Positions 25,301 through 44,842 of a stretch of DNA of 64,000 nucleotides are shown piece by piece. Position 1 is the stretch's first letter. Every line of letters starts with the position of its first letter. The DNA comes from Eledone cirrhosa (lineage: Eukaryota). Made by a program: the position numbers and the translations under genes. Below the pieces are notes generated by a model. It worked only from the letters and a program-made list of their open reading frames with translations. It was not told the DNA's origin and made no database searches. The stretch is from NCBI GenBank assembly GCA_964016885.1, contig OZ024754.1, positions 25,048,001 through 25,112,000 of the forward strand. Direction: 5' to 3'.

Positions 25301-28300
25301 ACGTTTGTTTACGAAAGGACAAACCGAGCATTATAATAAATTTTCGCTAATCTGATACATACATATATATATGTGTGCCTTTATGTATATATATATATAC
25401 ATGCTAATATTTAAGTAAGTGCCAGTGAAAAATTTCATTTCATTTCATGTTATTCTATTTTATCGTTTTCAGTGCTGAAACTCACTAGATATGCAAATCA
25501 GGCTGCTCAGCCGTTAATTACCATAAGGAAAGTTCGAACCTTCGAAAGTTCAACCATCTGGCAGAAGGGTATACGGTGTTGACGATAGCTAACAAGCTTG
25601 AAACTAGTACATCGTTCCTGTGTCAGTATTGAACAAAAAGGTGACGTGGTTGCCTTAACACCGTACGGCATAAACCGAGCTGTCCGTTTGTTTACAAACT
25701 GACAAAGCGAGCATTATAATAAATGTTCGATAAACTGATACGTGATATATATATGTGTGCCTGTATATGTATATGTGTGCCTGTATATATATATATATAT
25801 ATATATATATATATATATATATATATATATATATATATATATATATATATATATATATATATACATACTACTGCACGTCTATATGCATATATGTATGTAA
25901 GTATACATACACACTTACATTTAAGTAAGTGACGTGCTAAGAGTGAGAAATTTCATTTCATTTCATTCTATTCCATTTTATCGTTTTCGGTACGCCTGGC
26001 CGTTTGAACTCACTCGATATGCAAATTAGGCTGCTCAGCCGTTAATTTTCATAAGGAAAGTATATACTTTCAAACGTTCAACCATCTGGCAGAAGGTTAT
26101 ACGGTGCTGACGATAGCTAACAAGCTTGAAACTAGTACATCGTTCCTGTGTCAACGTTGAAAAAAAAGGTGTCGTGGTTGCCTTAACACCGTACGTTTAT
26201 TTACAAACGGACAAAGCGAGCATTATAATAAATGTTTGCTAAACTGATATGTACATATATATATGTGTGCATTTATGTATATATATATATATATATATAT
26301 ATATATATATATATATATATGCTACTGTACGTCTGTATGCATATATGTATGTACGTATACATACATACTTACATTTAAGTAAGTGAGTGAGAAATGAAAT
26401 CTCATTTCATTCTATTCCATTTTATCGTTTCCGAGGCGCCTGGCCGACTGAACTCACTCGATATGCAAACTAGGCTGCTCAGCCGTTAATTTTCATAAAG
26501 TATATACTTTTGAACGTTCAACCATCTGGCAGATGGGTATACGGTGCTGAGGATAGCTAACAAACTTGCAACTAGTACACCATTCCTGTGTCAGTGTTGA
26601 ACAAAAAGTTGACGTGGTTGCCTTAACACCGTACGGCATAAATCAGGCTGTCCGTTTGTTTACAAAAGGACAAAGCGAGCATTATAATAAATTTTCGCTA
26701 CATACATATATATATGTGTGCCTTTATGTATATATATATATACATGCTACTGTACGTCTGTATGCATATATGTATGTACGTATACATACATAATTACATT
26801 TAAGTAAGTGCCAGACTAAGAGTGAAAAATTTCATTTCATTTCATTGTATTCTATTTTTTTGTTTTCAGTGCGCCTGACCGACTGAACTCACTCGATATG
26901 CAAATTAGGCTGCTCAGCCGTTAATTATCATAAGTTCGAACCTTCGAACGTTCAACCATCTGGCAGAAGGGTATACGGTGCTGACGATAGTTAACAAGCT
27001 TGAAACTAGTACATCGTTCCTGTGTCAGTATTGAACAAAAAGGTGACGTGGTTGCCTTAACACCGTACGGCATAAACCAGGCTGTCCGTTTGTTTACAAA
27101 CTGACAAAGCGAGCATTATAATAAATGTTCGTTAAACTGATACATAATATATATATGTGTGCCTGTATATATATATGTGTGCCTGCATATATATATATAT
27201 ATATATATATATATATATATATATATATATATATATACATACTACTGCACGTCTATATGCATATATGTATGTACGTATACATACATACTTACATTTAAGT
27301 AAGTGCCGTACAAAGAGTGAGAAATGAAATTTCATTTTATTCTATTACATTTTATCGTTTTCCATGCGCCTGGGCGCCTGAACTCACTCGATATGCAAAT
27401 TAGGCTGCTCAGCCGTTAATTTTCATGAGGAAAGTATATACTTTCGAACGTTCAACTATCTGGCAGAAGGGTATACGGTGCTGACGATAGCTAACAAGCT
27501 TGAAACTAGTACATCGTTCCTGTGTCAGTGTTGAACAAAAAGGTGACGTGGTTACCTTAACACCGTACGGCATAAATCAAGCTGTCCGTTTGTTTACAAA
27601 CGGACACAGCGAGCATTATAATAAATGTTCGCTAAACTGATACTTACATATATATATATATGTGTCCCTGTATGTATATATACGTCTGTATGCATATATG
27701 TATGTACGTATACATACAAACTTACATTTAAGTAAGTGCCGTACAAAGAGTGAGAAATGAAACTTCATTTCATTCTACTCCATTTTATCGTTTTTGGTGC
27801 GCCTGTATATATATATATATATATATATATATATATATATACAGGCACACATATATATTACGTATCAGTTTAACGCTTTGTCCTTTTGTAAACAAACGTA
27901 CAGCCTGCTTTATGCCGTACGGTGTTAAGGCAACCACGTCAACTGACGATAGCTAACAAGCTTGAAACTAGTACATCGTTCCTGTGTCAGTGTTGAACAA
28001 AAAGGTGACGTGGTTACCTTAACACCGTACGGCATAAATCAAGCTGTCCGTCTGTTTACAAATGGACAAAGCGAGCATTATAATAAATGTTCGCTAAACT
28101 GATACTTACATATATATATATATGTGTCCCTGTATGTATATATATATATATATATATATATATATATATATATATATATATATATACATGCTACTGTACG
28201 TCTGTATGCATATATGCATGTACGTATACATACATACTTACATTTAAGTAAGTGCCGTACAAAGAGTGAGAAATGAAATTTCATTTCATTCTATTCCATT

Positions 28301-28795
28301 TTATCGTTTTCGAGGCGCCTGGCCGACTGAACTCACTCGATATGCAAATTAGGCTGCTCAGCCGTTAATTTTCATAAGGAAAGTATATACTTTCGAACGT
28401 TCAACCATCTGGCAGAAGGATATACGGTGCTGACGATAGCTAACAAGCTTGAAACTAGTACACCGTTGCTGTGTCAGTGTGACCAAAAAGTTGACGTGGT
28501 TGCATTAACACCGTACGGCATAAATCAGGCTGTCCGTTTGTTTACAAAAGGACAAAGCGAGCATTATAATAAATGTTCGCTAATCTGATACGTACATATA
28601 TATATGTGTGCCTTTATGTATATATATATATATATATATACATTCTACTGTACGTCTGTATGCATATATGTATGTACGTATACATACATACTTACATTTA
28701 AGTAAGTGCCGTACAAAGAGTGAGAAATGAAATTTCATTTCATTCTATTCCAATTTATCGTTTTCAGTGCGCCTGACCGACTGAACTCACTCGAT

Positions 28796-43900: not shown

Positions 43901-44842
43901 TTTTCCATGCGCCTGGGCGCCTGAACTCACTCGATATGCAAATTAGGCTGCTCAGCCGTTAATTTTCATAAGGAAAGTATACACTTTCGAACGTTCAACC
44001 ATCTGGCAGAAGGTTATACGGTGCTGATGATAGCTAACAAGCTTGAAACTTGTACATCGTTCCTGTGTCAGTGTTGAACAAAAAGGTGACGTGGTAGCCT
44101 TAACACCGTACGGTATAAATCAGGCTGTCCGTTTGTTTACAAACGGACAAAGCGAGCATTATAATAAATGTTCGCTAAACTGATGCGTACATATATATAT
44201 GTGTGCCTGTATGTATGTATGTATGTATATATACATATATATATATATATATATATATATATATATATATATATATATATATATATATATATATATATAT
44301 ATATATATATACATGCTACTGTACGTCTGTATGCATATATGTATGTACGTATACATACATACTTACATTTAAGTAAGTGCCGTACTAAGAGTGAGAAAGG
44401 AAATTTCATTTCATTCTATTGCATTTTATCGTTTTCGGTGCGCCTGGCCGACTGAACTCATTCGATATGCAAATTAGGCTGCTCATCCGTTAATTTTCAT
44501 AAGGAAAGTATATACTTTCGAACGTTCAACTATCTGGCAGAAGGGTATACGGTGCTGACGATAGCTAACAAGCTTGAAACTAGTATATCGTTCCTGTGTC
44601 TGTGTTGAACAAAAAGGTGACGTGGTTGCCTTAACACCGTACGGCATAAATCAGGCCGTCCGTTTCTTTACAAACGGACGAAGCGAATATTATAATAAAT
44701 GTTCGCTAAACTGATACGTACATATATATAGATGTGTGCCTGTATGTATATATATATATATAACGAAGGAAATGTGGTAAGGAACCAGGTGGACCGTAAC
44801 GCACCAAAGTACTCAATACTTAGGGTAGTAGAGTGGGTAATA

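Follow-up and report, generated by a model that had tools for sequence, protein, structure and literature searches.

Tandem repeats that carry a type I hammerhead ribozyme are found in newt satellite 2, schistosome SM-alpha and Dolichopoda pDo500, and a hammerhead in a tandem repeat is by itself an ordinary observation. Among the closest described systems are the metazoan non-LTR retrozymes of coral, mussel and axolotl, which are reported as tandem, non-coding units of 150-450 bp with a GC content below 50% and one type I hammerhead each; their predicted RNA is highly paired, they occur in thousands of copies together with Penelope-like elements (PLEs), and efficient cleavage and circles have been described for them (Cervera and de la Peña 2020, PMC7229834). 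In a squid genome, 235 Hammerhead_1 hits have been reported (PMC6962438). PLEs as the movers of retrozymes have so far been argued for from co-occurrence and shared ribozymes (PMC7229834, PMC7761336). Homology of pLTRs has been put forward as a further argument in Xenopus, where retrozymes organised as monomers, dimers and multimers are presented as non-autonomous PLE derivatives with a proposed dependence on PLEs (Li, Clavereau, Pollet, bioRxiv 10.64898/2026.07.22.740005). PLE insertions are described as having a one-ended tail and an inverted arm, and the Hydra clade targets (TA)n, which Naiads likewise favour (Craig et al. 2021, PMC8557442). In vitro, the tail was found to lie between two internal reverse-transcription start sites, with both DNA strands being cut and extended; the PLE protein is predicted to be a dimer, and the tail is called unique to PLEs (Frangieh et al. 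2024, PMC11167929).

The window analysed here is a 64,000-nucleotide stretch of the Eledone cirrhosa genome, in which a repeat that we call family A (subfamily A1) forms an array at 25302-44761 (+ strand). The tandem array of hammerhead monomers proposed in the initial annotation was confirmed. In total, 41 type I hammerhead positions lie in 25301-44761 at a spacing of 432-533 nt (mean 474 nt, or about 440 nt with the internal (TA)n collapsed); the CUGANGA/GAAA/UH core is intact in 36/41 of them, and 30/41 combine it with stems I and II of 6 and 3 bp, respectively, and with the palindrome ACUAGU. A representative unit, bounded by (TA)n tracts, is located at 43337-43772 (+) and provides the reference numbering q1-q436. 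By description, family A resembles newt satellite 2, SM-alpha and pDo500 in having a type I hammerhead in tandem repeats.

Family A also shares with the retrozymes of PMC7229834 the tandem non-coding units with a GC content below 50%, a single type I hammerhead per unit, thousands of copies, the presence of PLEs and a highly paired predicted RNA; its cut-to-cut monomer would be 453 nt long (43157-43609, +) and is predicted to be 67% paired as a circle. The units are longer (420-530 bp against 150-450 bp), and the internal (TA)n tract, the targeting of (TA)n, the paired long and short ends and the inverted arms go beyond what is given for those retrozymes in the available text of PMC7229834. 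No ORF with reverse transcriptase (RT) plus GIY-YIG was found within 25302-44761, and family A is like the Xenopus retrozymes in its monomer, dimer and multimer organisation and in its proposed dependence on PLEs as a non-autonomous derivative. The assignment of family A as a putative metazoan non-LTR retrozyme, a new family of a known kind, is well supported by sequence. No description of it was found in literature searches, and the supplements of PMC7229834 or of the bioRxiv report could list it.

In the reference unit, the putative ribozyme occupies 43558-43626 (+) and reads as a type I hammerhead with an extended stem I. Stem I (43573-43578/43610-43615) has 6 bp and is prolonged past a UAU bulge by further helices, the core CUGACGA lies at 43579-43585 and GAAA at 43600-43603, and the 2-bp palindrome ACUAGU forms stem III at 43603-43608, with a predicted cut after 43609 (GUA). 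Stem II consists of a U·U and 3 bp, with a 6-nt loop. These dimensions agree with those of the canonical dimer-type metazoan hammerhead (helix I of about 6 bp, helix II of about 4 and a palindromic helix III of 1-2 bp), and a contact between loops 1 and 2 may exist. The earlier reading as a minimal hammerhead was given up, and the min-HHR class of PLEs, defined by a long helix II and a short helix I, by a helix III that is minimal or absent and by a lack of tertiary loops (PMC4209133), is ruled out for family A by its short helix II and extended helix I. The putative dimer-type stem III, like the retrozyme identity, is well supported. A weak palindromic helix III has also been noted for the amphibian (newt) satellite hammerhead (as cited in PMC7229834). 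At the base of helix II, the G10.1-C11.1 pair is absent in family A and in the second family of the window, family B, and is replaced by U·U. This feature is shared with axolotl HHR_Amex2, for which 22% cleavage as a monomer and much better cleavage as a dimer were reported (PMC7229834).

The Rfam hammerhead models named in the initial annotation did not recognise the motif: no Rfam model matched at the gathering score, no hammerhead was among 91 weak matches, and the best HH9 score was 14.9 bits against a threshold of 52 (E 0.23), in the correct register. Weak matches of the miRNA type were rejected as (TA)n artefacts. A loose type I motif appeared in 0/5000 dinucleotide shuffles of one monomer, and the fold z-score of the ribozyme alone (-1.16) is not significant. 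In the predicted folds, stems I and II are preserved while CUG pairs with UAG, an inactive register that would be consistent with a need for dimerisation or for a protein. The 5' strand of stem I (43573-43578) is also complementary to about 43657-43663, some 50 nt past the cut; this alternative pairing is possible in A1 and A2 and lost in A3.

The array itself is a higher-order repeat. Its 40 units sort into 17 types with a recurring block of about 10 units (4.7 kb), a single copy of which spans 31719-36420 (+) with the unit types in the order B L D E F G H I J K. Over 150 nt, units of the same type diverge by 0.08% and units of different types by 6.9%, and a sister array, some 300 kb distant, matches the window array at 99.6% identity across 10.6 kb, the adjacent PLE included. 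The left end is 5'-truncated and the right end lies inside the internal (TA)n tract. Four inverted remnants break up the array: a 5'-truncated arm at 27819-27940 (-), left by an inverted insertion, and further copies at 33469-33590, 38161-38284 and 39613-39736, one such remnant being included in the higher-order block. The window array is a secondary, later amplification of a multi-unit block at the DNA level. The original label of a satellite thus describes the long tandem array, but not the family as a whole, which is dispersed, appears to be mobilised by PLEs and formed the array secondarily. The sequence variants that had been pointed out are present, namely CTGAGGA at 43126, CTGATGA at 44024 and the toggling between CATCGT and CACCGT, but the copy at 44024 has a broken palindrome (CTTG) and three of the four CTGAGGA copies have a broken GAAA. 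Because the array is a DNA-level higher-order repeat of 17 types, the N7 and G·U/G-C variants represent few copied events and not independent evidence. Variation within the array is therefore weak evidence, and covariation proper comes from dispersed subfamilies and family B.

In the 3.0-Gb genome, the exact 31-nt core occurs in 13,460 copies, a non-ribozyme motif of the family A unit in 18,399 and a relaxed U·U/GUA motif in 43,450, with 0 matches for the reversed control in each case; among the relaxed-motif matches listed, 100/100 belong to family A or family B. The dispersed copies of family A are largely short tandem or inverted insertions, and subfamilies are found at about 91% and 83% identity. 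Pieces related to family A were also seen at low depth in contig sets of unrecorded kind labelled organisms B and C. In 34 dispersed copies picked from 54 usable ones, 10/88 pairs change on both sides, including a G·U to U·G change in stem I and two pairs of a long-range helix. In this set, which holds only about three independent subfamilies and whose structure was derived from the same alignment, 98.8% of the cells are paired, compared with 96.3% after shuffling and 32-40% after sliding, which points to constraint on the RNA. The core was also compared with the rest of the unit in loci found without use of the ribozyme (22 segments from 24 loci, after 6 overlapping ones of 30 fetched were dropped); it was not significantly more conserved, with 0/11 against 31/284 columns (p=0.61, low power), and 17/22 segments are intact.

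The ends of dispersed copies were surveyed in 72 loci, comprising the 22 best matches to a window unit, the first 40 exact-core matches on contig C1 and 10 others. Their arms are 5'-truncated, tandem and often inverted, and the 3' ends fall at two sites: 55 are short and end at q~56 (48 into TA), 54 are long and end at q~114-117 (51 into TA), and the remaining 8 are classed as other, mid or cut. One long and one short end were found in 31/34 loci with ends called on both strands, a count in which two of the three exceptions (L059, L068) were kept even though they look like motif miscalls. In the reference unit, the stretch between the two sites of the dispersed copies, the 'tail', corresponds to 43392-43453 (+). 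The ends lie in (TA)n, where target-site duplications cannot be told apart. The short and long sites, about 60 nt apart, are probably start sites of reverse transcription, and the insertion scars indicate that family A may be copied by the enzymes of Penelope-like retrotransposons. Insertion in (TA)n, tandem and inverted 5'-truncated arms, a one-ended tail and a hammerhead in the repeat are all shared with Hydra-clade PLEs (PMC8557442) and with the tail mechanism (PMC11167929), as far as these are described there. Family A differs from Hydra-clade PLEs in having no ORF and a tail of about 60 nt instead of 30-40 nt and, unlike in those elements, its end sites lie on the far side of the internal (TA)n, some 240-300 nt after the ribozyme cut.

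These ends bear on the view that family A is an inert satellite or a DNA-mobilised hairpin repeat, spread by unequal crossover or in a Helitron- or MITE-like manner, with a hammerhead that is there by chance or as a relic. The higher-order structure of the long array with its nearly identical sister copy fits such an origin, as does the missing Rfam call. We nevertheless regard it as very improbable in the face of thousands of copies that are scattered through the genome with truncated 5' and fixed 3' ends, of compensatory changes that include G·U/U·G, and of a motif not recovered by shuffling; in addition, terminal inverted repeats or rolling-circle DNA ends were not noticed in the loci read.

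Several other elements surround the array. Its last (TA)n tract adjoins Hydra-W, a Hydra-clade-like PLE at 44762-57370 that consists of tandem copies at 44762-53459 (-) and an inverted arm at 53460-57370 (+). Hydra-W carries the RWR, DKT and CxCx5C motifs of Hydra elements, its frames are interrupted, it is not homologous to family A, and a Pfam search of it found no family. Its pLTR contains, at 54135-54226 (+), an unrelated hammerhead-like motif, identified by eye, in which stems II and III are long and the core is a U3-A8 variant of the kind described in PMC4209133; the same variant is present in the tandem copies at 44762-53459 (-) and is not picked up by a CUGANGA scan. Penelope-like fragments of other types, with RT plus GIY-YIG, are located at 57500-58855 (-) and 59382-61070 (+), the second with an in-frame stop near 60021. 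Further family A copies at 62096-64000 (-) run on past the window end. This array and the one at 25302-44761 converge on the PLE cluster at 44762-62095, both ending inside an internal (TA)n tract and lacking a tail, and a comparable arrangement of a PLE cluster between converging A arrays is found at C14:25.34-25.41 Mb.

On the other side of the array, positions 23000-25300 hold an imperfect repeat that is AT-rich (GC content of about 20%) and contains inversions, and positions 1-23000 an approximately 5/10-kb higher-order repeat of family A pairs, family B units and AT-rich spacer. The A pairs are at 169-1019, 5437-6310, 10458-11308, 15426-16299 and 20453-21305 (all +), and more A and B copies were seen in the 10 kb upstream of the window (L045). 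Retrozyme family B has a 310-bp unit with 33 hammerhead motifs at 1746-22815 (-). It has no significant BLAST similarity to family A and shares with it the UAU bulge, the 6-nt loop II, the U·U and a palindromic stem III, while the stems differ. Its palindrome is ACGCGU, it is also dispersed (C1 loci L108, L116, L124-L135), and in one inverted family B locus a short end and a long end lie in (TA)n.

Elsewhere in the genome, another Hydra-type element, Hydra-X (L137-L165, L166), is young and abundant, with 2506 candidates and top matches that are 98-99% identical. In its pLTR hammerhead, stem II is long and stem III is an 8-nt palindrome, and the element has an asparagine-rich ORF stretch. A third hammerhead-bearing family, family C (L089-L105), occurs as short inverted pairs of the hammerhead-bearing end with long and short termini, and no linked ORF was seen. 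In L167 (L038 extended), about 600 nt past the end of a Hydra-like ORF, a hammerhead-like motif has C4 replacing U4, together with U·U; its stem II is long and its stem III palindromic.

Six insertions fuse family A to other PLE-type families, and in 6/6 the outer ends are one long and one short. Subfamily A2 is joined directly to Hydra-X in reciprocal order in two of them, L066 and L166/L069, both with outer ends in (TA)n, and to Hydra-W, the Hydra family of the window, in L057. In the other three (L083, L087, L088), family A is joined to family C; L087 and L088 were found by a search with L083 and are therefore not independent finds. Hydra-X alone shows the pairing of long and short ends in 7/7 loci with both ends visible, among 29 loci. 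Direct 5' joins of family A to an unrelated SINE-like repeat were found in 2/72 A loci, so fusions are not exclusive to PLEs. Hydra-like fragments lie near 12/76 loci, a count without a random-locus baseline that is not used as evidence. Family A was also considered as the pLTR of the adjacent Hydra-W or of Hydra-X, and both were rejected, as there is no shared sequence with the former and no homology with the latter; among the PLEs compared (Hydra-W, Hydra-X), none has a pLTR homologous to A. The Xenopus link to PLEs, as reported, rests on co-occurrence and pLTR homology, whereas that of family A is drawn from insertion ends and chimeras.

It could be argued that a Neptune-, Poseidon- or Naiad-like PLE of another clade is the driver, and that the fusions with Hydra elements reflect chance encounters at common (TA)n targets. 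The window contains two other elements with RT plus GIY-YIG, Naiads too prefer (TA)n (PMC8557442), family A has no sequence in common with Hydra-W, and direct fusion to A was seen in 0/29 Hydra-X loci. On the other hand, wherever an autonomous element can be identified in a chimera (3/3), it is of the Hydra type and the ends are complementary, and we consider another clade distinctly unlikely. The (TA)n-targeting Hydra clade is most likely the driver.

Dispersed copies read through the ribozyme site, and only 2/125 5' break points, in a set that includes alignment artefacts, lie within 5 nt of the cut site, without a pile-up; cut linear monomers are therefore not the main template. In subfamilies A2 and A3, the median distances between units within a locus are 0.003-0.006, opposite arms included, compared with 0.040 (A2) and 0.025 (A3) between loci, and these homogeneous loci would fit a template, either a circle or a homogeneous multimer, that was copied several times over. 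In A1, the subfamily of the window, the within-locus distance of 0.047 is no lower than the between-locus distance of 0.038. Family A may be mobilised by PLEs from uncut multimeric RNA, with a hammerhead that is slow or protein-dependent and with monomers and circles that are rare or incidental. In favour of such a template, 5' break points are not in excess at the cut, stem II has a U·U at its base, and the A1 loci are heterogeneous. In addition, a PLE inserted uncut RNA in vitro without a need for cleavage, the ribozyme needed protein, and no reads ended at the cut (PMC11167929). However, families whose stems are unrelated have retained the core, the palindrome, the bulge and loop II, the homogeneous multi-unit A2 and A3 loci fit the copying of a single circle, and the axolotl U·U motif is reported to cleave well as a dimer and to yield circles (PMC7229834). 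An uncut multimeric template is held to be rather unlikely. A monomer or circle step for family A is itself only moderately likely in view of the very small stem III, of a stem II with U·U at its base and of published negatives, among which is the cleavage of 1/9 Xenopus dimers in vitro (bioRxiv 10.64898/2026.07.22.740005).

Taken as a whole, family A is probably a non-autonomous, non-coding retroelement that is mobilised in trans by PLEs, with cleavage as a dimer, circularisation and growth of arrays at the DNA level. Tandem copies would be transcribed, and neighbouring hammerheads would pair through ACUAGU and cut after GUA to release monomers of 420-530 nt, which a host ligase could circularise, as suggested by homologous systems. 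A PLE RT/GIY-YIG complex would then nick (TA)n DNA, and reverse transcription would start within the unit at two constant positions separated by about 60 nt, each serving one end of the DNA, in agreement with the ends observed. By running through one to about seven units and past their ribozyme sites, it would give the 5'-truncated tandem and inverted arms that are seen in the dispersed copies. Since each unit has its own (TA)n tract, copies may draw later insertions, and the 19.5-kb array has then grown by DNA-level duplication of a multi-unit block.

A more specific and tentative version, which may well prove wrong, is that a Hydra-clade PLE complex acts as a dimer and builds each insertion from two RNA templates, of which one is primed at the long site and the other at the short site. 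The two RNAs might differ in family, with retrozymes and PLEs swapping slots. Family A would then be a passenger, partly as circles, and its (TA)n would be its own landing pad, seeding arrays of satellite size.

The partnership between retrozymes and PLEs has long been suspected, and family A adds unusually direct footprints to it in the form of a PLE tail and end-complementary chimeras of the Hydra type. A candidate protein and two candidate priming sites can now be named for the existing in vitro assay (PMC11167929). Its ends and chimeras also bear on how PLEs produce inverted insertions, and the array in the window shows a route by which a mobile ribozyme RNA, as family A appears to be, becomes a higher-order satellite.
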